Of a DNA stretch of 64,000 nt, positions 2,257 through 64,000 are shown one piece after another (the first letter of the stretch is position 1; the number at the start of each line of letters is the position of its first letter). The position numbers and the translations under genes were made by a program. The stretch is taken from the NCBI GenBank assembly GCA_041649575.1, contig JBAZMW010000002.1:148487-212486 (forward strand), written 5' to 3'. Source of the DNA: Patescibacteria group bacterium. GTDB lineage: Bacteria > Patescibacteriota > Patescibacteriia > 2-01-FULL-39-33. The notes below the pieces were generated by a model, which did not search any database, had not been told where the DNA came from, and was given only the letters and a program-made list of their open reading frames with translations.

Positions 2257-3804
2257 ATGGGAATTGAACTTAATTTTGATTTGGCTTCAGTTTGGGAAAG
2301 TTTCGTAATTTTTGCTTCCCAGGATCCAATTACCATTGGCATTCAACTGTTTCTTAAAGGTGGTTGGGTGATTTTTTTAATTGTAATACTGACTGTTTTT
2401 TACGATGCGTGGCTAGATGCCCGCCAAGGCCAGTATGCCGGCAAGTGGCAGCATGTTCTCTTGGCTATCGATATTCCCAAAAACAATGAACAAACACCTA
2501 AGGCGGTAGAAAATCTTTTTGTCGCTTTGGCCGGTACGCAATCCAGCGGCAATTTGATTGATCGTTATTGGCATGGCAAAATACAAGAAAGTTTTTCCTT
2601 CGAAATCGTCAGTCTCGAAGGCTATATCCAATTTTTGGTGCGCACTCCCGTTCATTTCAGGGATCTGGTGGAGGCCGCTGTTTATGCCCAGTATCCGGAA
2701 GCGGAAATCACCGAAGTCGAGGATTACGCCAAGGATTATGCCGGATTGCGTTTTCCCAATGAGCAATATAATTTGTGGGGCACCGAATTGGTTCTGACCA
2801 AGGATTACCCCTATCCCATCAAAACTTATATTGATTTTGAACACACTTTGACCGGCAATTTTTTGGATCCCATGGCGGGGTTATTGGAGATTTTGAGCCG
2901 CTTCGGTCCCGGCGAGCAGCTCTGGCTGCAGCTGGTGGTGACGCCGTGGAAGCCGGACTGGGGCGAAAAAGCCAAAAAAGCCATCAAGACTCTTAAAGGA
3001 GAAAATTATGCTCCGCCGACCACCATAGCCGACAGGATAGCCAAACCAATCGAGTGGTTGGGCACTCAGGCCTTAAATGTCGCTAATGAATTTGCCGGCG
3101 GCGGGGGAGAGGGAGCCAGCAAAAAAGAGGAAGATCAGTGGAAAATGTTCAAACTTACTCCTGGAGAAAGACTGGTTTTTGAAAAAATTCAGCATAAATT
3201 GTCCAAAATTCCTTTCCGGGTGAAATTTCGCATGATTTATTTGGCCAAAAAAGATGTTTTTGCCAAAGGCCGGGGCGTAGCGGCTGTGATTGGCAATATT
3301 CAGCAGTTTAATGTCTCCGACGCCAATGGCTTCAAACCCGGCCCGAAAACCAAGACGGCGGTCGATTATTTTCGCGTTAAGAAAAGATTGGCGGAAAGGC
3401 AAAAAAGGATTTTGCGTCGTTTTATTGGCCGCAGTAATTTTTATGGCGAACCGGTCAGTAATATGTTTTTGAGTACCGAGGAATTAGCCACCCTTTGGCA
3501 TTTCCCGGTGATGACCGTTAAGGCGCCCAGGCTGGAAATGATTGGCTCCAGGCGAGCCGTTCCGCCCACTCGTTTGCCCTACAAAAGTCGTGGTTTTACC
3601 GTTGAAAAAGAGAGAGTTAGAACTTTGGCGGAAAGAGACGGCAGGATTGAAGAAAAAATTGAAGGTTCACTGGAATCTCATCCCCGGTCGCCAAAGTTAC
3701 CAGCGGTAGCGCCGCTGGTTCGGCCGGCCAATTTAACGGACAAATCGACCGAACCGCCGCCGCGAAGAAATCCCGAACCGCCGGCCAACTTACCCACTGT
3801 TTAA
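2257..3804 (+). CDS. Membrane protein (two N-terminal TM helices, large soluble domain); putative partner of the downstream TraD-like ATPase
   Basis: Hydrophobic N-terminus (VIFLIVILTVFY). 13 bp upstream of, and co-oriented with, the coupling-protein-like ATPase. Pro/Arg-rich C-terminal tail. Confidence 0.5.
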   Translation: MGIELNFDLASVWESFVIFASQDPITIGIQLFLKGGWVIFLIVILTVFYDAWLDARQGQYAGKWQHVLLAIDIPKNNEQTPKAVENLFVALAGTQSSGNLIDRYWHGKIQESFSFEIVSLEGYIQFLVRTPVHFRDLVEAAVYAQYPEAEITEVEDYAKDYAGLRFPNEQYNLWGTELVLTKDYPYPIKTYIDFEHTLTGNFLDPMAGLLEILSRFGPGEQLWLQLVVTPWKPDWGEKAKKAIKTLKGENYAPPTTIADRIAKPIEWLGTQALNVANEFAGGGGEGASKKEEDQWKMFKLTPGERLVFEKIQHKLSKIPFRVKFRMIYLAKKDVFAKGRGVAAVIGNIQQFNVSDANGFKPGPKTKTAVDYFRVKKRLAERQKRILRRFIGRSNFYGEPVSNMFLSTEELATLWHFPVMTVKAPRLEMIGSRRAVPPTRLPYKSRGFTVEKERVRTLAERDGRIEEKIEGSLESHPRSPKLPAVAPLVRPANLTDKSTEPPPRRNPEPPANLPTV

Positions 3805-6934: not shown

Positions 6935-8045
6935 AGAAAAAGTGGTAGTAGCGATGAGTGGTGGCGTTGATTCCTCCGTCGCTGCGGCCTTACTCAAAAA
7001 ACAAGACTATGAAGTGGTTGGAGTTTTTATGCAGTTTTGGTTTCCCTTGTCTCGCCAGGGACAAGCGGAGGCGGGCTCGTTTACTAAAAATAAAACCATT
7101 CAGTCAAGTATAAATACCAAGGTTTACGAAGAAAACCGCTGTTGTAGTTTGAGGTCTTGGAACGAAGCGCAACAAGTGGCGCGAATTCTGGATTTTCCTG
7201 TTCGCAAGGTAAATTTCGGACGGCAATTCAAAAAACTGATTGTTGATGAATTTTTGCGTGAGTACAGACTGGGTCGCACTCCCAACCCTTGTGTCGCTTG
7301 CAATAAATTTATCAAATTTGATTTGTTGTTGAAATATGCGAGAACTGTTTTTGGTGCGGATTATTTGGCTACCGGGCACTATGCTAGCTTGGTGTCATTC
7401 AAATTAGGACGGCCCAAAGACAGACAAAAAGACCAGACTTATTTTTTGTATAATTTAAAACAAGCACAATTAAAGCACCTGCTTTTTCCGCTTGGTAATT
7501 ATACTAAAAATGAGGTCAGAAAATTGGCTAAGAAGTTTAAGCTGCCGGTTTTTGATAAGCCGGACAGCCAGGAAATCTGTTTTGTGGGGCAGTCACATTA
7601 TGATTTTTTGAAGAAATATTTGCGCTTACAGCCGGGTAAAATCATTAGCAACCAAGGAAAAATATTGAGAACGCATCAGGGTCTGCCCTTGTATACCCTG
7701 GGCCAAAGGAGCGGCTTGGGGCTTTCGGGCGGACCGTGGTATGTGGCTGAAATGGATTATAAAAAAAATCGGCTGGTTGTCACCAAAAAAGAAAAGCAGT
7801 CAGCAATCTTTCGAAAAGAATTAGTCGCCCAAAAAGTTAATTGGCTTTTTGGCGAACCAAAATTTCCTCTCATATGCCAGGCGCAAATTCGTTATCATGC
7901 CCGGTCGGCCAGTTGTCTGGTGAAAAAGCAGGACCAAAAGATTGTTGTTGAATTCAGGCAAAAGCAGCGGGCGATAATGCCCGGCCAATCTGTGGTTTTT
8001 TATCAAGGTGATGAGCTGTTGGGCGGGGGAGTGATAGTGGGTTAG
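6927..8045 (+). CDS. mnmA: tRNA-specific 2-thiouridylase MnmA (with extra insert after the PP-loop region)
   Basis: VVAMSGGVDSSVAA PP-loop, CCS..., NPCVACN and TGHY motifs. Confidence 0.9.
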   Translation: MAKEKVVVAMSGGVDSSVAAALLKKQDYEVVGVFMQFWFPLSRQGQAEAGSFTKNKTIQSSINTKVYEENRCCSLRSWNEAQQVARILDFPVRKVNFGRQFKKLIVDEFLREYRLGRTPNPCVACNKFIKFDLLLKYARTVFGADYLATGHYASLVSFKLGRPKDRQKDQTYFLYNLKQAQLKHLLFPLGNYTKNEVRKLAKKFKLPVFDKPDSQEICFVGQSHYDFLKKYLRLQPGKIISNQGKILRTHQGLPLYTLGQRSGLGLSGGPWYVAEMDYKKNRLVVTKKEKQSAIFRKELVAQKVNWLFGEPKFPLICQAQIRYHARSASCLVKKQDQKIVVEFRQKQRAIMPGQSVVFYQGDELLGGGVIVG

Positions 8046-8153
8046 TACAGAAGGAGTCAGGTTAATAATAAAAAAAGAAGACAAAGATCGGGCAGAAGAG
8101 GTTTTAGAAATTGGTAATAAGTAAATTATTAATAATAAACAAAGATTTAACGT

Positions 8154-8182
8154 TTGACATAATTTTGAAAGCATAATAAGAT
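8154..8182 (+). promoter_or_regulatory. Promoter TTGACA-17-TAAGATAAT driving a GC-rich cassette
   Basis: TTGACA at 8154-8159, 17-bp spacer, TAAGAT at 8177-8182. The same motif recurs at 9196. Confidence 0.55.
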
Positions 8183-8284
8183 AATATATCTTTCTCCAGA
8201 GAGAATGATTCATAGTCCACTTGTGGTGGAAGATGATTGCACAAAAGACAAGGGAACAGGAACCCAAGAAGGAGGCTGTACGTC

Positions 8285-12009: not shown

Positions 12010-12235
12010 TTTCATTTCTGCGAGCGCATGAAAATTTAGCAACAAAACAGGCGGAGTTCGAGCGTAAATTTTAATTTGTTTGAGCAAAAGCCACCAGTAA
12101 ACTGGTGGCTTTTGCGAGTTATTAAAATTAGCGAGAACAACCCTGTTTTGTCTAAATTTTCATTTAGCTCGCGCTTTTTTCTTTTGTGTCAGCTTTTCTT
12201 TTTACTAAAAAAAGAAAAGCTGACACAAAAAAAGA
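12010..12235 (-). repeat. Dispersed intergenic repeat, copy A (inverted orientation), with a 19-bp perfect hairpin at 12185-12228
   Basis: Shares cttttctttttttagtaaaaagaaaagctgac(a/g)caaaagaaaaaagcgcga and ...gctcaaac...aaattttcat(g/a)(c/g)gctcgca with the copies at 22162 and 24651. Confidence 0.6.
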
Positions 12236-24650: not shown

Positions 24651-24848
24651 TTGTCACTTTTCTTTTTTTAGTAAAAAGAAAAGCTGACGCAAAAGAAAAA
24701 AGCGCGATCTAATGAAAATTTGGCGCTTTAAGTCAAAATCCTAACAAAATTTTTAAACTCGCTTCGCCTACGGCTCGCTCAAACAGTAAAAATTTAGTAA
24801 CGGATTTTGCCTTACGCTTATTCCAAATTTTCATAGGCTCGCATTGTA
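24651..24848 (+). repeat. Dispersed intergenic repeat, copy B
   Basis: About 80 nt nearly identical to the reverse complement of copy A (cttttctttttttagtaaaaagaaaagctgacgcaaaagaaaaaagcgcga) and the ...gctcaaac...aaattttcataggctcgca tail. Confidence 0.6.
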
Positions 24849-25389: not shown

Positions 25390-27858
25390 ATGAACCTCAA
25401 TATCTCCTACAACTGGCTCAAAGAATATGTCAAGACAGACTTGATGGCTCATGAGTTTGCCAAAAAATTGTCTCTGTCTGGTCCTTCGGTTGACAGAATC
25501 AAAAAAGTCGGGGCGAATTTTGATAAGGTGGTGGTTGGCAAGATGCTGGAAATTAGCAAACACCCCAACGCCGACAAGTTAAATGTGGCCAAGATAGACA
25601 TCGGTAAAAAAGAACCCATTCAGGTTATTTTTGGACAGATGGCGGTGTTGAAAGTCGGGGATCAGTTACCGGTCGCTGTGGCGCCAACCAAGCTGCCTGG
25701 CGGCATAGAAATATTGGAAAGGGAAATGCGAGGCGTCAAATCACAAGGGATGTGTTGCCTGGACAGTGAGCTGGGTTTGTCCGATCAAGACAAGGTGACG
25801 TTTTTTCCGGCAAAGATAAAACCAGGAACTCCGATCGCCCAGGCACTGGAATTGAAAGAAGATTATATTTTGGATATCGAGGTCACTTCCAACCGGCCCG
25901 ATGCCATGAGTGTTATTGGTATTGCTCGTGAAGCCGCGGCCATACTTGGCGACAAATTTTTATATCAGGAGCCCAAAGGATTGCCACCAGTCTCGCCGAG
26001 CCTAGGCGGACGGTCGCGTCGCTCCCTCGCAATGACATTAAAAGTCACCGTCAAAGAGCCAAAGCTTTGCCCGCGCTACCAGGCGGCAGTGATGACCGGC
26101 GTCAAAGTCGAACCGTCACCACTTTGGATGCAGCAGCGATTATTGGCTTCCGGCTTGCGGCCAATCAATAATTTAGTCGACATTACTAATTATATTTTGT
26201 TGGAATTCGGACAGCCGATGCATGTTTTTGATTATGATAAACTGGCCGCCGCCGAGATTAATGTGCGCCTGGCTAAAAAAGGCGAGACTATCTTGGCGCT
26301 TGATGGCAAGGAATATGAATTGGATGAAAAAGTGTTAATTGTTGCCGATGGCAAGAATCCTTGCGCTGTTGGTGGCATAATGGGTGGCGAATTATCCGGC
26401 GCAACCGGTATAACCAAAAACGTAGTTTTGGAGGTTGGTAATTGGGACCCAGTTAACATCAGAAAGACCGCCAGAGTCCTAAATTTGCATTCAGAAAGCT
26501 CTGATTTATACGAGAAGGGTCTAAGCCCGGAAGGCACCCAATCGGCTCTCTTACGGGCCATGGAGCTGGTCGAGGATTTGGCCAGTGGCCAATTGGCCGG
26601 AGAAATCATTGATATTAATAATTACAAACATAAGGTTAAAGAAATAAAACTGGACACAGCCAATGTCAGTCGCTTTTTGGGCGTGACTATCACAAACTCA
26701 CAAATTAAAGAAAGTCTAGACTCTTTGGGTTTTGAAGTTTACCCTGTTAAATCCCGCTCTAAGCGGGACGGCTCTGCCGTACTTAACGGGGTAAAAGTGC
26801 CCTGGTGGCGTGATCGGGATATGGAAGGCGAACATGACCTGATCGAAGAAGTGGCGCGGCTTTATGGCTATCATAATTTGCCCACCAAGTTAATGGCCGG
26901 CGACCTGCTTTCCGCTGTCATTCCGAGCGAAGTCGAGAAATCCCTTAATTTTTATTGGCAAGACAAGGTAAAGGACATTTTGGCCGGCTTTGGTCTGACC
27001 GAGATTTATACCTACTCCTTCATCTCCGAAAAGCAAATTAATAATTGCCGCTTAAACGCCTCGGCCCATCTGAAAATTTCCAACCCCTTGAGCGCTGATT
27101 TTGAATACCTGCGCACTTCGCTCTTACCCGGCGCTTTGCAGATTATTATCGAAAATGCCGGCTTTTTTTCAGAGGTCAAGTTATTTGATCTATCCAATGT
27201 TTATTTGCCGGTTAAAAAAGATGATTTGCCTCTGGAAAAAACAACGCTTCTTGTCATCGTTTCCGCCAAAAGCGGGAAAGCGGCCCTAAATGAAGCCAAA
27301 GGTATTTTTGAAGGCTTACTAAAACGTCTGAATATTTCCGATTTTAAATATTTAAAAGCTGACAATGCCGAAGGTGTTTATTGTCCGCCGAATTCGCGGA
27401 TTATCGTGGCAGAAAAGGGGATTGGCAGTATTAGTCTGGTTGAGCCGAAAGTCTTAGCGGCTTTTGGCGTCAAAAACGACGTGGCCTTTATCGAGGTGGA
27501 GTTTGAAGCCATTGCTTCTCAAGCCAAATCCGCTCCTGCCTATCACTCGATTCCCAAGTTTCCGGCCATTGAGCTTGATCTGTCAATGGAAGTTGATAAT
27601 GTCATTACTTTTACCGAAGTGGCCAATGTTGCCAGCGATGCCGGCGCGCCTTTGGTTGAAAAAGTCGATTTCCTGTCAGTTTATCAGGGAGATCCGTCCC
27701 AGGCCGAGGCCAAGAAGCTGGCTGTAAATAAAAAAGCTTTGGCTATTAGAATCGTTTACCGCGATTTAAACAAAACCCTGGAGCTGGCCGAAGCGCAGGC
27801 CGCGCATCAAAAAATTGTTGCCGCTCTGAAAAAGGGGTATAATATAAAAGTGAGATAG
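25390..27858 (+). CDS. pheT: Phenylalanine--tRNA ligase beta subunit (carries an in-frame GC-rich repeat insertion)
   Basis: tRNA-binding N-terminus (MNLNISYNWLKEYV), B3/4 and B5 domains, C-terminal FDX-ACB-like region. Confidence 0.9.
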   Translation: MNLNISYNWLKEYVKTDLMAHEFAKKLSLSGPSVDRIKKVGANFDKVVVGKMLEISKHPNADKLNVAKIDIGKKEPIQVIFGQMAVLKVGDQLPVAVAPTKLPGGIEILEREMRGVKSQGMCCLDSELGLSDQDKVTFFPAKIKPGTPIAQALELKEDYILDIEVTSNRPDAMSVIGIAREAAAILGDKFLYQEPKGLPPVSPSLGGRSRRSLAMTLKVTVKEPKLCPRYQAAVMTGVKVEPSPLWMQQRLLASGLRPINNLVDITNYILLEFGQPMHVFDYDKLAAAEINVRLAKKGETILALDGKEYELDEKVLIVADGKNPCAVGGIMGGELSGATGITKNVVLEVGNWDPVNIRKTARVLNLHSESSDLYEKGLSPEGTQSALLRAMELVEDLASGQLAGEIIDINNYKHKVKEIKLDTANVSRFLGVTITNSQIKESLDSLGFEVYPVKSRSKRDGSAVLNGVKVPWWRDRDMEGEHDLIEEVARLYGYHNLPTKLMAGDLLSAVIPSEVEKSLNFYWQDKVKDILAGFGLTEIYTYSFISEKQINNCRLNASAHLKISNPLSADFEYLRTSLLPGALQIIIENAGFFSEVKLFDLSNVYLPVKKDDLPLEKTTLLVIVSAKSGKAALNEAKGIFEGLLKRLNISDFKYLKADNAEGVYCPPNSRIIVAEKGIGSISLVEPKVLAAFGVKNDVAFIEVEFEAIASQAKSAPAYHSIPKFPAIELDLSMEVDNVITFTEVANVASDAGAPLVEKVDFLSVYQGDPSQAEAKKLAVNKKALAIRIVYRDLNKTLELAEAQAAHQKIVAALKKGYNIKVR
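25978..26039 (+). repeat. In-frame GC-rich element 'Y' inside pheT (encodes LPPVSPSLGGRSRRSLAMT)
   Basis: Matches about 55 of 60 positions of the reverse complement of 38896-38957 (ggattgccaccagtctcgccgagcctaggcggacggtcgc...cgctccctcgcaatgacatt). Confidence 0.7.
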
Positions 27859-38421: not shown

Positions 38422-39291
38422 TTATTTTTTCTTTACCACCAGCCACCCAAATTTAATGGTGGCATTATAAATCCTACTTAACCGGCGCGGTTCTTGGATT
38501 AGCCGATATAGCCATTCTAACCCCAATCGCCTCAAAAATAAAGGCGCGCGTCTCACCTGTCCCGACAAAAAATCAAAAGTCCCGCCGACGCCAATCGCCA
38601 CTTTAATTTTTGGCACTTTGGCTAAGTTGTCTCTGATCCACTTCTCCTGCCTCACTTGCGGCAAGGCCACCAACAGAATATTGGCTTCGCTGGCATTAAT
38701 TTTTTCCAGCACCTGATTGTTGTTTTCAAATTGCCAACATTTGTTTTCTATGGGATCCCCACGGCCGGCTTCGCCGGCCTCGGGATGACATTGTAGAAGC
38801 GGCCCGCCTTGGTCAAAGCCAGCCACTTTGCCAATATATTTTTCTGCCACTTGTTTTGCCGCTCCTTCTTTTCCGCCCAGTAAATAAATTTTATAAATGT
38901 CATTGCGAGGGAGCGCGAGCGACCGTCCGCCTAGGCTCGGCGAGACTGGTGGCAATCCCGTGGGATCACCGCGTTGCCCGGTCATTTGACCGGGCTCCTC
39001 GGGATGACAACTTAGAAGTGCCTCTATTAGATCCACGCCCGTCACTCTCTCTAATTTTTCTTGTTTTAAAAATTTAGCCGCCCAAACCAGCCCAGCGCCA
39101 TCGCAGGTGGCCAAATCAGCATTATTTAAAATATTTCTGAAAACTTCGTCTTTTTGCGCCGCCACCACAAATTCCGGATTAATCGTCACCACCTGCCTTT
39201 GGCCTTCCGCTGTCAGCCATTTTTTAATTAACTTCAAGGCTTCTGGCAAATTGACCTGATCGATTTTTATTCCCAGTATTTCTATTTTCAT
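38422..39291 (-). CDS. WecG/TagA/CpsF-family glycosyltransferase carrying three in-frame GC-rich repeat insertions
   Basis: VVTINPEFVV...ADLATCDGAGLVWAAKF...GVDLIEALL and C-terminal RVAGPDL-type region are typical TagA. Extra segments CHPEEPGQMTGQRGDPTGLPPVSPSLGGRS and CHPEAGEAGRGDP. Confidence 0.75.
   Translation of the reverse strand: MKIEILGIKIDQVNLPEALKLIKKWLTAEGQRQVVTINPEFVVAAQKDEVFRNILNNADLATCDGAGLVWAAKFLKQEKLERVTGVDLIEALLSCHPEEPGQMTGQRGDPTGLPPVSPSLGGRSLALPRNDIYKIYLLGGKEGAAKQVAEKYIGKVAGFDQGGPLLQCHPEAGEAGRGDPIENKCWQFENNNQVLEKINASEANILLVALPQVRQEKWIRDNLAKVPKIKVAIGVGGTFDFLSGQVRRAPLFLRRLGLEWLYRLIQEPRRLSRIYNATIKFGWLVVKKK
38751..38799 (-). repeat. In-frame GC-rich element 'X', copy 1
   Basis: tgggatcccc-[GGCCGGCttcGCCGGCC hairpin]-ctcgggatgacattgtagaag. 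Same flanks as copy 2 with a different, compensatory hairpin. Confidence 0.6.
38896..39018 (-). repeat. Composite in-frame element X2+Y (about 120 bp) bounded by imperfect inverted termini TGTCATCCCGAGG / CCTCGCAATGACA
   Basis: Y part (38896-38957) is homologous to the pheT insert. X part (38961-39018) is homologous to X1 and has the hairpin GCCCGGTCAaaTGACCGGGC. Confidence 0.6.
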
Positions 39292-39294
39292 AAG

Positions 39295-39984
39295 CTACTT
39301 TTTTAGATAATTCACGATGATTTTGGCCTGGCTCTGGTTTTCTTTGTCGTCCTTAAAAGACATCAGGCCAAAAATGTCGCCTTTCCAAAAGCCCAAATTA
39401 ATTTCATAATCTGCCAGATTTTCCTTAAACTCAAAGCCGCTTTCCTTCAGCTTGTTTTTGTAGTAGCCGGCCACCTCTTCTTTCGGCTGGCTTATCTGTT
39501 TCCAGGACAAAGAGGTTGTTTCCATTTTTTTCAGTTCCGGCGAGCTTAGGGCTTTTTTTAATTCCTCCGGCGTAAAACCGCGCGACAAGTCTATTTTATC
39601 GGCAAAACTTTGGCTTAATTTAGCTTTCAAATCATTGGATAAATAAGCCAAAGTCGGCTTAAGCAGCCAGTTTGGTAAAAGGCCCATGATTTTCAAAAGT
39701 TTTTCCTTGCCTTCTGGCGTCTGCAGTTCAATCTCGGCTTTTTCCGGCAGATAAATGGCCAGTTCTTCCGGGAAATCACCCGGCAACTGGTTGACTTTTT
39801 CCACCACCGGAGAGACCGCCAATCTGACAGCGGCAAAAAGAGTAATGAAGATAATTACCAACGCCAAAATTAAACAACCGAAAAATTTGATAAATTCTCG
39901 GCTTCTATTTTTTTCCGGATTGTTCAGGTTGAGTTCCTGCCAATTTTTCATTATTTCCTGGCTAATTTTATTATATTCTAGCAA
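39295..39984 (-). CDS. Hypothetical membrane-anchored protein (229 aa)
   Basis: N-terminal TM (FFGCLILALVIIFITLFAAV). No known motif. Confidence 0.5.
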   Translation of the reverse strand: MLEYNKISQEIMKNWQELNLNNPEKNRSREFIKFFGCLILALVIIFITLFAAVRLAVSPVVEKVNQLPGDFPEELAIYLPEKAEIELQTPEGKEKLLKIMGLLPNWLLKPTLAYLSNDLKAKLSQSFADKIDLSRGFTPEELKKALSSPELKKMETTSLSWKQISQPKEEVAGYYKNKLKESGFEFKENLADYEINLGFWKGDIFGLMSFKDDKENQSQAKIIVNYLKK

Positions 39985-40031
39985 ATACCAGCCTTTTTTG
40001 CAAAAGTAAATCAGTCTTGTTATAATAAAAG

Positions 40032-40245
40032 TGGTTCATTTCCTCGAGACCCGAACTGGTCATTTGGGTCTCACCGCTCCGGTGGGGAAGCGAAACCAGC
40101 GCCTTCGCTTCCCCTCTGGCTTAACCAAAGCACCTTGGTAGCACTTCCCGGGTCTACTGAAAGCCGCATCCAGGCAAGCATTAGACCCGTTCCCGCTGTG
40201 GCGGCCGATGGCATCAGTCATCAGCCGTCCTTTTTGTTTATCCAC
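40032..40245 (+). ncRNA. Candidate structured RNA R1 (about 210 nt, unclassified)
   Basis: TTGCAA-17-TATAAT promoter at about 40001-40024. GC-rich hairpins GAGACCC...GGGTCTC and GGGGAAGCGAA...TTCGCTTCCCC. T-run at 40230-40245. Confidence 0.3.
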
Positions 40246-40289
40246 AGTTAAATATTTATAACCAAAGAAATCTTTGCTATAATAAAATC

Positions 40290-40625
40290 ACATTGGACAT
40301 GGGGCTTGTCAAATGGCCCTGCAACCAGTCCGAACGGAGAACGAGCCATGAGAACAAAGACAACGAAGCGAGCAGCAGTGGGCGTGATGGTCGATGGCAC
40401 CGGCGGAACAGCGTACTTGGCGACGTCCTGACCTAACGAGAACGGTCGGACTGGGCGTCAAAGAAGTTCTCCGAGACGCTTGACTCAACCCAAGCGTCTC
40501 GCCGCACCTTAACTCTCCTCGGAGAGTTGTGACTATAGGTTTTCACGCTTTGACAAAGCGTGGACATCCCCCTAAGGTGAGCAGTCGGTTGCTGACAGGT
40601 AGCCGACTCTCTTTTTGTTTTTAAA
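40290..40625 (+). ncRNA. Candidate structured RNA R2 (about 330 nt) with SD and a 27-codon Thr-rich mini-ORF (40347-40430), ending in an intrinsic terminator
   Basis: Extended -10 TGCTATAAT at 40275-40283. Long-range pairing CAGTCCG...CGGACTG. Terminator GTCGGTTGCtgacaGGTAGCCGAC plus CTCTTTTTGTTTTT. Confidence 0.3.
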
Positions 40626-40767
40626 AAATTTAGTTATCCACAGGTACTATTTATTTCTTTAAAAAATAGTTATATAATGAAAGTGCGGAAGGTATTTACG
40701 ATAGCGTACAACCGAAGCAGGCCATCGGCCAAACGATCGGCCAAACGAAAGAAAGGTGGGACGGAAG

Positions 40768-41259
40768 ATGAGAAAGTTCGTGTTTTGTACGGTAGTACTG
40801 GCGTTCGCGTTTGTGATGATTCCGGCGACGAATACTCCGGCATACGCGACGCAACTCGATCAAGGCAAGGCAGTGGCGACGGCTCCGACGACGATGGGGA
40901 CGACGCAGCAGGACGTGCAGACGGCGATGAAGAGCAACCTGGTCCTCGACGGCACCGGGCAGAAAGTCGCTGAAGTGATGAAGGCGCCGACTCTTGACTC
41001 CGGACGAGTGATTGCGCAGACGGCGACGACGAAGACGGCACGCGAAGAGCAGACGAAGATCACGGCGAAGAGTGACACGGTTGTAACGGCGAAGATCGAA
41101 GCGCAAGGCATGGGCGAGCAGATGGCAGCGGCTGGCGAAGATGACGCTGGCACGATCATCGTGGCGACGAAGAGTGACACCTATGCGACGAGAATCGAGG
41201 GCCGTATCGCTCACGACGCGGACGCGACCTTCAATGCGAACGTTCTGATCATCGGCTAA
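40768..41259 (+). CDS. Secreted Thr/Ala/Lys/Gln-rich small protein (signal peptide, cleavage after AYA), G+C-rich
   Basis: AAAGGTGGGA RBS. MRKFVFCTVVLAFAFVMIPATNTPAYA signal peptide. Low-complexity mature part. Terminator at 41349-41390. Confidence 0.5.
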   Translation: MRKFVFCTVVLAFAFVMIPATNTPAYATQLDQGKAVATAPTTMGTTQQDVQTAMKSNLVLDGTGQKVAEVMKAPTLDSGRVIAQTATTKTAREEQTKITAKSDTVVTAKIEAQGMGEQMAAAGEDDAGTIIVATKSDTYATRIEGRIAHDADATFNANVLIIG

Positions 41260-41424
41260 CCACGCGGGCAGCGCCGAAAGTCAGAACGAGTAGTACCTTG
41301 GATACACAACCGATACCGGCCAACAGTCGGATCGGCCACCTCCAGAGTTGGGTCAGCTGGCAACGGCGACCCTCTCTTTTTTTGTTTTGAAAAAATTTGC
41401 CAAAATTTTATAAATTTTTTATAC

Positions 41425-41756
41425 TATAAGCAAGCGGTTCCTGCTGTGGGAACCGTGCACATTGGGTCAACGGGTCAACCGGAGGGTACAAGCAATATGA
41501 AAAAGGAAATGAGAGCGCAGGGTTTGGTCGTGGCGAAATGGAAGTAGGCTAGACCGTAGCAAGGCAACTTAGCGTTGTTGGGCGGAGGCCCCAACTAACA
41601 GTGGGCCTCCGCTGAATCTTTCCCTCGCTTGAGCGGGGTGCTGGTATATCCTTCTCTGAAGGGGTTCCCCCGTTGGGAAGTGTTGCCCATTCAACGCCTC
41701 CTGACCGCACAGGCTGCAATTTGTCGCAAGACGAAGGGCAGCCTGAATTATTTTTT
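41425..41756 (+). ncRNA. Candidate structured RNA R3 (about 330 nt) with SD and a 16-codon mini-ORF (41497-41547), ending in an intrinsic terminator just upstream of the radical SAM gene
   Basis: GC-rich. Hairpins GGCGGAGGCCC...GGGCCTCCGCT and CAGGCTGC...GCAGCCTG followed by AATTATTTTTTG. Confidence 0.3.
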
Positions 41757-63875: not shown

Positions 63876-64000
63876 TTAAATTATGTATTTGCCGACTTTT
63901 TGATCTTGAATTATCGACCCCTCCTCCAAAGTAATCACTCTTCTTTTCAGGGAGTTGACTATTTCTTTGTTGTGAGTGACCAAAACTATCGTGGTGCCGA
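63876..64000 (-). CDS. ftsE: Cell division ATP-binding protein FtsE, C-terminal fragment (window edge)
   Basis: Reverse complement reads ...GTTIVLVTHNKEIVNSLKRRVITLEEGSIIQDQKVGKYII*, the ABC H-loop region. Lies immediately upstream of ftsX. Confidence 0.65.
   Translation of the reverse strand, partial: GTTIVLVTHNKEIVNSLKRRVITLEEGSIIQDQKVGKYII

Follow-up and report, generated by a model that had tools for sequence, protein, structure and literature searches.

In the 64,000-nucleotide (nt) stretch of a Patescibacteria contig (JBAZMW010000002.1) analysed here, referred to below as the window, a short GC-rich element that we call Y occurs in two near-identical copies. One lies within pheT, the gene for the beta subunit of phenylalanyl-tRNA synthetase, and the other, inverted and 12.9 kb away, within a glycosyltransferase gene of the WecG/TagA family (tagA). 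Y is probably a non-autonomous palindromic repeat of the repetitive extragenic palindromic (REP) type, from the CGTC/TGTC-tagged superfamily, that is translated where a protein loop tolerates it; we place the probability of this reading at about 0.78. It is built on the identity of the copies, their architecture, their in-frame reading, their absence from most orthologs, the disorder of the encoded segment and the family resemblance. Y is a derived variant of a published phenomenon in a new host, and no new kind of system.

Two copies of Y in pheT and tagA

The pheT copy of Y spans positions 25978..26037 (60 nt, REP sense on the − strand) and the tagA copy 38898..38958 (61 nt, REP sense on the + strand, read by its gene on the − strand as GLPPVSPSLGGRSLALPRNDI). 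Each carries a TGTC tag, an ATTGC...GCAAT outer stem and a CC tail whose next base is T or C, and both hosts are intact open reading frames (ORFs). Pairwise alignment of the pheT copy with the reverse complement of the tagA copy gave 40 of 40 identical positions at the 5' end and 58 of 60 overall. This bears out the near-identity proposed in a sequence-only reading of this DNA, whose end coordinates were 2 nt off (26039 becomes 26037, and 38896 becomes 38898). The sole difference between the copies is GGTCGC-GT-CGC in pheT versus GGTCGC-TCG-CGC in tagA, that is, two substitutions and a 1-nt indel. The window holds exactly two instances of the shared 40-mer GGATTGCCACCAGTCTCGCCGAGCCTAGGCGGACGGTCGC (25978-26017, +, and 38919-38958, −), against none in 100 dinucleotide-preserving shuffles (chance expectation 0); the Y pair is the second-longest inverted repeat pair of the window.

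In-frame translation of the element in two unrelated genes, also claimed in that reading, is supported as far as the sequence can tell. The frame is common to both genes over the first 13 codons only (peptide GLPPVSPSLGGRS); after the 1-nt indel, pheT reads RRSLAMT and tagA reads LALPRNDI, so the claim of one shared element frame fails beyond that point. In the reading orientation of the genes, frame 2 is closed in both copies by a TAG located in a nested 24-nt module (see below), and frame 3 is closed by a TGA at the tag in the tagA copy only. The frame in use is the sole stop-free frame of the tagA copy and one of two in the pheT copy. Because the alternative frames hold these stops, the shared frame is forced, and it is what survivorship predicts. 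The stretch GLPPVSPSLGGR is the peptide in the region of the Y insert. All five TGTC-tagged units of the window and a third, unrelated palindrome keep the frame of their host without a stop codon.

The pheT gene (25390..27858, +; 822 aa) was identified by its ORF, its Pfam content and a structure match. All five PheT domains are present (tRNA_bind, B3_4, B5, tRNA_synthFbeta and FDX-ACB), and the protein matches solved PheRS beta chains over its full length (2rhs_B, E 3e-128). It is identical to the NCBI/JGI/ENA protein P0001 from a Patescibacteria metagenome-assembled genome (MAG), which is Buchananbacteria-like; the closest other PheT among 5.8 billion clusters is just 63% identical. Read on the + strand, Y encodes residues 197-216 (GLPPVSPSLGGRSRRSLAMT). 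In an alignment of 41 orthologs the native linker between B2 and B3/4 follows the pattern PK-PNLxxxGxKKx-LxVxVKExKLCPRY, whereas the window protein reads PK-GLPPVSPSLGGRSRRSLAMT-LKVTVKEPKLCPRY. The whole native 11-residue linker has been replaced by 20 Y-encoded residues, for a net gain of about 9 aa.

A second TGTC-tagged REP of pheT (26916..26943, +; TGTCATTCCGAGCGAAGTCGAGAAATCC) is short and degenerate. It encodes residues 509-518 (AVIPSEVEKS) in frame and is missing from PheT orthologs. The third insert, the unrelated palindrome at 26740..26793 (54 nt, no strand assigned), encodes residues 451-468 (YPVKSRSKRDGSAVLNGV) in a loop of the B5 domain, adds about 6 aa relative to orthologs and adopts a three-way DNA fold of −16.9 kcal/mol (z −6.5). 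Its homolog in P0012/L012, about 75% identical as DNA (peptide HPVKSAKADGKVVFNGVK), occupies a different PheT site, the B2-B3/4 linker, and therefore points to a second mobile palindromic family. In the AlphaFold2 model of PheT (mean predicted local distance difference test score, pLDDT, 85.4), values below 50 occur only at residues 202-212, within Y, and 501-516, overlapping the insert at 509-518; the block 451-460 within the third insert has a pLDDT of 64. The Y-encoded residues are thus predicted by the model to form a disordered, flexible surface loop.

The tagA gene (38422..39291, −) encodes 289 aa, compared with about 240-250 aa in orthologs, and hosts three units. X1 (38961..39009, −; 49 nt) has a TGTC tag, an ATCCC...GGTGAT stem and a CCCA tail and encodes the peptide CHPEEPGQMTGQRGDP. 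X2 (38751..38790, −; 40 nt, TGTCATCCCGAGGCCGGCGAAGCCGGCCGTGGGGATCCCA) encodes TagA residues 168-181 (CHPEAGEAGRGDPI). X1 and Y together form an inverted dimer (38898-39009, 112 nt; TagA residues 95-132) with the tags outward and the tails facing each other, and this dimer folds into a single large hairpin (−59.5 kcal/mol, z −5.6). The hairpins of X1 and X2 are longer and have interruptions, with z-scores of −3.0 for X1 alone and, for X2 alone, −3.7 as RNA and −3.2 as DNA. In TagA the X1+Y dimer (38 aa) stands in place of 6 residues, and X2 adds about 16. Ortholog alignments place Y, X1 and X2 as extra or replacement segments in variable loops. Y, the dimer and X2 are absent from all 22 TagA orthologs examined; these lineage-specific copies indicate that the family inserted after the split from the sampled relatives.

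The earlier proposal of a dispersed repeat family, as opposed to a local duplication, is supported by these data. The family is present at two genes, yet it is sparse. All five matches to GTCATNNNGAG in the window are the TGTC-tagged units (Y twice, X1, X2 and 26916-26943), and extension of the contig by 2 x 10 kb (L010, L011) gave no further TGTC-tagged unit, just one diverged copy of the module. Two scans of viral contigs, one with the module and one with the core of Y, returned 0 matches. Rfam gave no match for Y at the gathering threshold or at E<=10, and literature searches with motif strings returned chance primer matches only and no bacterial repeat. A 45-aa concatenate of both Y peptides had no matches in a search insensitive enough that the parent proteins were likewise not recovered.

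CGTC-tagged REPs and the PheT linker of relatives

The CGTC-tagged REPs were described by Di Nocera, De Gregorio and Rocco (2013, BMC Genomics 14:522; PMC3733652). They have an unpaired 5' tag, CGTC or often TGTC, a stem of 8-9 bp that starts with AT, a loop of 4-5 nt and a tail that fits CCA; they mostly form inverted dimers, in many cases heterodimers, with spacers of 1-2 bp, are known from five phyla and have no associated transposase (PMC3733652). Intragenic units encode 8-30 aa, and RPE-4 and RPE-6 of R. conorii, two of the Rickettsia palindromic elements (RPE), are CGTC-4 and CGTC-1 units (PMC3733652). The peptides in Additional file 3 of that work include VIPAKAGI, listed for CGTC-1 units of R. 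conorii and S. wittichii, as well as ..PAFAGMT, CHSRESGNP, RHPREGGDP and DSRFRGND, and the same file shows dimers that lie within two Erythrobacter litoralis synthetases, GlyS-beta and IleS (PMC3733652).

Our units share much of this architecture. The tag is TGTC in all five window units and CGTC in the X units of L007 and L008 and in the units of L001 and L004, with the variants TGTC and CCTC counted as a tag match. The stems start with A-T throughout: ATTGC/GCAAT in Y, ATCCC/GGGAT in X2, ATCCC/GGTGAT in X1 and ATTCC/GAAAT in the unit at 26916. Tails read CCCA in X1 and X2, and CCA or CCAG in units of L003, L004, L008 and L013. Canonical units with an 8-bp stem and a 4-5-nt loop are found in related loci (L008 14869, L013, L004 5317 and L001 46). 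The one at L008 14869, GTCATTCCCGCGAAAGCGGGAATC, translates to VIPAKAGI, identical to the published CGTC-1 peptide, and that of L013 is TGTCATCCCAGACTTGATCTGGGATCC. Further peptide parallels are CHPE..RGDP with CHSRESGNP/RHPREGGDP, ..LAMT with ..AGMT, and ..PRND with ..RFRGND. Inverted dimers are formed by X1+Y in tagA and by X and the Y core in PheT of L007, L008 and P0038, in the arrangement of Additional file 3 of PMC3733652. On these features Y and X are best called putative derived members of the superfamily, in a phylum not previously listed; our literature searches found no paper linking REPs with Patescibacteria. The likeness extends to the tag, the AT stem start, the CCA-like tail, the inverted dimers, the in-frame units in aminoacyl-tRNA synthetases and the lack of a linked transposase. 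The differences are the host, a member of the Patescibacteria or candidate phyla radiation (CPR), the larger and interrupted interiors of X and Y, and the nested 24-nt hairpin of Y.

Three other systems invite comparison. RPEs inserted in frame in essential genes were reportedly described by Ogata et al. in 2000 as 'Selfish DNA in protein-coding genes of Rickettsia'. RPEs are translated, surface-exposed and apparently tolerated, and RPE-1, of 106-150 bp, is Rickettsia-specific. The in-frame palindromic behaviour is alike, and with RPE-4 and RPE-6 our units share the architecture of tag, AT stem and tail, with no further sequence. In contrast to RPE-1, the window units measure 28-61 nt, reside in a free-living or episymbiotic CPR host and lack the RPE-1 consensus. 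The REPIN-RAYT system has a GTAG tag and a single-copy RAYT flanked by REPs (Bertels and Rainey 2011; PMC3116915, PMC3337134). Like a REPIN, X1+Y consists of two inverted REPs in a larger hairpin that is possibly the mobile unit, and single units can be remnants of dimers, as the pheT copy of Y appears to be when compared with L007 and L008; the tag is TGTC/CGTC and not GTAG, and there is no RAYT in 104 kb of the source contig. Bacterial miniature transposable elements with inverted repeats (MITEs) such as Correia/NEMIS are small and non-autonomous, and in-frame fusions are possible (review PMC10969869). The ends of X1+Y, TGTCAT...ATGACA, resemble terminal inverted repeats, and the units are small and dispersed as MITEs are, but they have no target-site duplication and no parent insertion sequence, single units are one-ended, and at 28-61 nt they are shorter. 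Self-splicing introns, inteins and known RNAs found no counterpart, as Rfam gave no match and Pfam recognized in PheT only PheT domains.

Comparison with PheT orthologs alters the picture of the pheT copy given in the sequence-only reading. Most orthologs (about 786 aa, against 822 aa in the window) are indeed without Y, but the segment is no simple new insertion: its 36-nt core, Y0 (GGATTGCCRCGGTCGCTGCGCTCCCTCGCAATGACR, peptide GLPRSLRSLAMT; seen as DNA in L007, L008 and L009), lies at the same junction in other Patescibacteria, and only the 24-nt module is specific to this genome. A Y0-type segment stands directly before LKVxVKExKLCPRY in PheT of P0013 (L007), P0033 (L008), P0038 and P0020 (L009). 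In the first three, HPE...(R/T)(G/R)D... is followed by GLPRS..SLAMT abutting LKV, an X-type and then a Y-type unit in the dimer arrangement of the window TagA, and the X partners of these three differ internally from one another. P0020 carries GLPRSLHSLAMT alone, with no X-type partner.

REP-type inserts occupy the PheT linker in about 10 of 120 orthologs and comprise at least three subfamilies: the Y0 type, a VIPAKAGI...GMT type (P0002, P0011 and P0068) and a unit with a ATCCCAGA stem (P0050/L013). The suggestion that such an insert is unusual for a housekeeping aminoacyl-tRNA synthetase was therefore overstated, the more so as intragenic REP or RPE units, including those of GlyS-beta and IleS, had been published (PMC3733652). 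The L013 unit, although of another subfamily, sits at the identical junction, between ATGACA and TTGAAGGT (ATGACA followed by TTRAARGT). The sole published counterpart for such recurrent occupation of one housekeeping-gene junction across lineages is recB of Xanthomonas, where different REPs lie at about the same site in two species (PMC3733652). In P0012/L012, the sister of P0013, the Y site is empty and a different palindrome lies a few codons upstream; in a neighbour-joining tree of PheT, carriers are scattered among non-carriers. The spacer between X and Y0 of L007 was considered as the original linker and rejected, having no DNA similarity to the empty sister site in L012. Between genomes Y0 is 89-94% identical; for the very conserved 180 nt next to it the figure is 69-78%, and for third codon positions in that stretch 38-53%. 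The linker may owe its occupants either to one old insertion, lost many times and with a slowly evolving core, or to repeated colonisation of a permissive, perhaps preferred, site. The diversity of occupants favours repeated colonisation, and the conservation of Y0 favours a single old insertion or some constraint.

The relative represented by P0033 and L008 holds about eight TGTC/CGTC REPs in 22 kb, mostly intergenic and just 3' of genes (among them positions 3521, 4089, 7844, 8233, 14869 and 16889), and its unit at 7844-7898 has another hairpin nested in the loop. When this frequency is set against that of the window, REP load differs strongly between related Patescibacteria genomes. Apart from REPs, the PheT orthologs P0054, P0115, P0080, P0106 and P0012 (alignment A2) contain scattered short lineage-specific inserts, for example PLSNSPLRKGREDNV, ENNPLTPFAKGEQKKRGTT, a QGRPFGKT tandem and GLSRQSFEGAAAEG, which suggests that further translated repeat families may exist in the lineage.

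Mobilisation, history and rival explanations

From this evidence we infer how the units are mobilised, in what order events took place and that the insert is neutral. A trans-acting factor would copy the units to new genomic sites as short DNA able to form hairpins, an IS200/IS605-like Y1 enzyme being the usual suspect among REPs. Copies within genes would survive where the frame is kept, no stop is introduced and the surface loop is tolerant, those that break a gene being removed by selection, and the survivors would simply be transcribed and translated. In pheT, Y would then serve as the entire flexible B2-B3/4 linker, and in tagA it would dimerise with X1 in a variable loop. As to the order, Y0, usually with an X partner, would have colonised the PheT linker, in an ancestor or repeatedly; the lineage of the window would later have lost the X partner and the native linker codons, and a 24-nt mini-hairpin would have become nested in Y0; the module-bearing Y would finally have appeared in tagA, or in both genes, through transposition or gene conversion. 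Both window copies lie a single small change away from the TG of the Y0 consensus (GT in pheT, TCG in tagA), and these independent changes imply that neither copy would be the direct parent of the other.

Several observations weigh against Y as a mobile REP. Taken alone, Y has a fold that does not surpass those of its shuffles (z −0.2 to −0.6 as RNA, +0.5 as DNA), and with a 5-bp outer stem and a 46-nt interior it departs from the published stem and loop dimensions. Across 84 kb of the source contig there are five TGTC-tagged units, all within pheT and tagA and none intergenic, and such a sparse, non-intergenic set fits relics better than an active population. The Pfam annotations of 104 kb of the source contig include no transposase, Y1_Tnp/HUH or other. 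There is no target-site duplication at any unit and no strict target motif; the flanks are A/T-rich, usually with a T before GTCAT. (A relaxed hairpin finder, allowing one stem mismatch and the tag GTCAY, returned 14 matches against 4 in shuffles, mostly noise, and only exact-stem, GC-rich units were used.) Y0 outlasts saturated synonymous sites, which pure selfish drift does not predict, and the Y0 of L008 shows more likeness to pheT copies from other genomes than to the rest of the REPs sampled in L008.

The near-identity of the two copies could also have arisen by ectopic gene conversion between a pre-existing Y0 in pheT and a REP in tagA, with the module carried across, an account we regard as possible though rather improbable. 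It would explain why the module stands at exactly the same internal position in both copies, and it agrees with the presence of Y0 at the same pheT junction in L007, L008, L009 and P0038, by which the pheT copy probably predates the module, and with the one small independent change from the TG of Y0 in each copy. It still requires a REP to have inserted in tagA first, since the dimer is found in 0 of 22 orthologs; conversion of 60-nt tracts between inverted copies 12.9 kb apart is possible but unproven; and the presence of the module in two different REPs (L003, L004) is equally compatible with independent insertion. That the REP of the PheT linker was instead kept from an ancestor for a selected function, be it an RNA or DNA hairpin (pausing, mRNA processing or stability, a recombination site) or the linker peptide itself, seems to us unlikely. 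The excess identity of Y0 over its coding surroundings, its retention in REP-poor genomes (the units of L007 and of the window are all intragenic) and the greater closeness of the L008 Y0 to foreign pheT copies than to its own intergenic REPs are what such a function would leave behind. Yet about 110 of 120 orthologs do without the insert and the carriers are scattered on the tree, unrelated elements occupy the same linker, the X partner varies by lineage, neither Y0 nor Y folds better than shuffled sequence, and the peptide is predicted to be disordered, with its last seven residues differing between the two genes.

Two further accounts are very improbable. Y might be cut from the mRNA or bypassed by the ribosome, in the manner of a mini-intron or of 'byp', the GC-rich bypassed inserts of some yeast mitochondria; a GC-rich, structured insert in a 44%-GC genome, with a very stable X1+Y fold, would suit this. 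All five units and the third palindrome are nevertheless in frame and stop-free, and the copies differ by 1 nt in length while both genes remain in frame, which argues for translation and not for removal. Rfam moreover finds no intron or other family match, and intragenic REP/RPE units of Rickettsia are expressed as protein (cited in PMC3733652). Less credible still is an assembly artefact, a repeat-induced chimera or a collapsed repeat, although the sequence does come from a metagenome contig of MEGAHIT style (k141_2894300, 235 kb): on either side of the repeat, each gene stays colinear with its orthologs, the gene order pheT...gltX-wecG recurs in the independent contig L007, and Y0 lies at the same pheT position in independent assemblies from other samples. 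Weighed against all four, a translated REP of the CGTC/TGTC superfamily remains our preferred reading of Y.

The nested 24-nt module and other repeats

Comparison of the window with L007, L008 and L009 shows that Y in the window equals Y0 plus a 24-nt module, CAGTCTCGCCGAGCCTAGGCGGAC, placed between GGATTGCCAC and GGTCGC. The module lies at 25988..26011 (+) in the pheT copy and, identical, at 38925..38948 (−) in the tagA copy. It folds as a bulged hairpin, CC-A-GTC-T-CGCC[GAGCCTA]GGCG-GAC-GG, and its 5' end, (A/T)GTC, resembles a REP tag. An exact 20-mer of the module has one match in 596 Gb of GTDB species genomes, a set that does not include the source genome, and four in JGI metagenome contigs.

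In other contexts, 22-24 nt of the module are found in L001, L003-L006 and L011, and this core is identical across several unrelated metagenomic organisms. In L003 and L004 the module occupies the apical loop of canonical REPs with 8-bp stems, the empty form GTCATTCCAGCGCAGGCTGGAATC lying nearby; in L001 it is located within a GTCATTGCGA...GGCAATC unit and runs opposite to its orientation in Y. In L005 (380-460) and L006 (1560-1640, −), two contigs of metagenome Ga0210057, it is part of a nearly identical block of about 85 nt, with a T-arm-like GGTTCGAGTCC about 150 nt downstream. Identification of this block as tmRNA or tRNA-like was rejected by ARAGORN, and the L005 block has no Rfam match; possibly it is a small RNA not described before. 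A LOOT RNA is also present in L005, at 8110-8232. In L011 (3140-3222), about 6.7 kb past window position 64000, a diverged module, CCTGTCTCGCCGAGCCAAGGCGGAA, splits a 23-nt fragment from the 5' part of tRNA-Lys(UUU), about 20 nt from an intact tRNA-Lys gene (L011 3057-3129, −), and fragment and module together could be the remnant of an integration at the tRNA.

The hosts of the module are thus REP interiors in either orientation, a tRNA-Lys fragment and a conserved non-coding block. We offer only tentatively, and consider somewhat doubtful, the idea suggested by these contexts that the module may insert independently, as an ultra-small unit that lodges within other structured DNA; Di Nocera et al. 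had already noted that REPs can be nested in other palindromes (PMC3733652). If true, the module would rank with the smallest sequences known to be mobile or targeted, and together with the recurrent PheT junction it would point to hairpin-directed, site-selective insertion for a superfamily with no known transposase.

Taken with the PheT and TagA inserts, these units extend in-frame 'selfish' palindromes of the REP/RPE type to Patescibacteria, whose genomes are usually called streamlined. Some of the additional length of housekeeping proteins in these bacteria comes from disordered linker derived from repeats, with consequences for annotation, for domain-boundary calls and for the reading of 'lineage-specific inserts'. 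The PheT linker, with its several subfamilies at a partly identical junction, and the nested 24-nt hairpin provide concrete sites for studying the movement of CGTC REPs.

Two other features of the window are recorded here. The region 40000-41620 is GC-richer (51%) and comprises four units, all of which have a TTG...TATAAT-like promoter at the start and a hairpin with a T-run at the end; its ORFs overlap on both strands and have no Pfam or Rfam match (Rfam was run on 39950-41700), and one of the four units encodes a possible small secreted protein (40769-41259, MRKFVFCTVVLAFAFVMIPA...). A 65-nt A/T-rich inverted repeat pair, 91% complementary, lies just 3' of genes at 12155-12219 and 24657-24721; positions 12179-12233 are palindromic, and the pair looks like a repeated bidirectional terminator.

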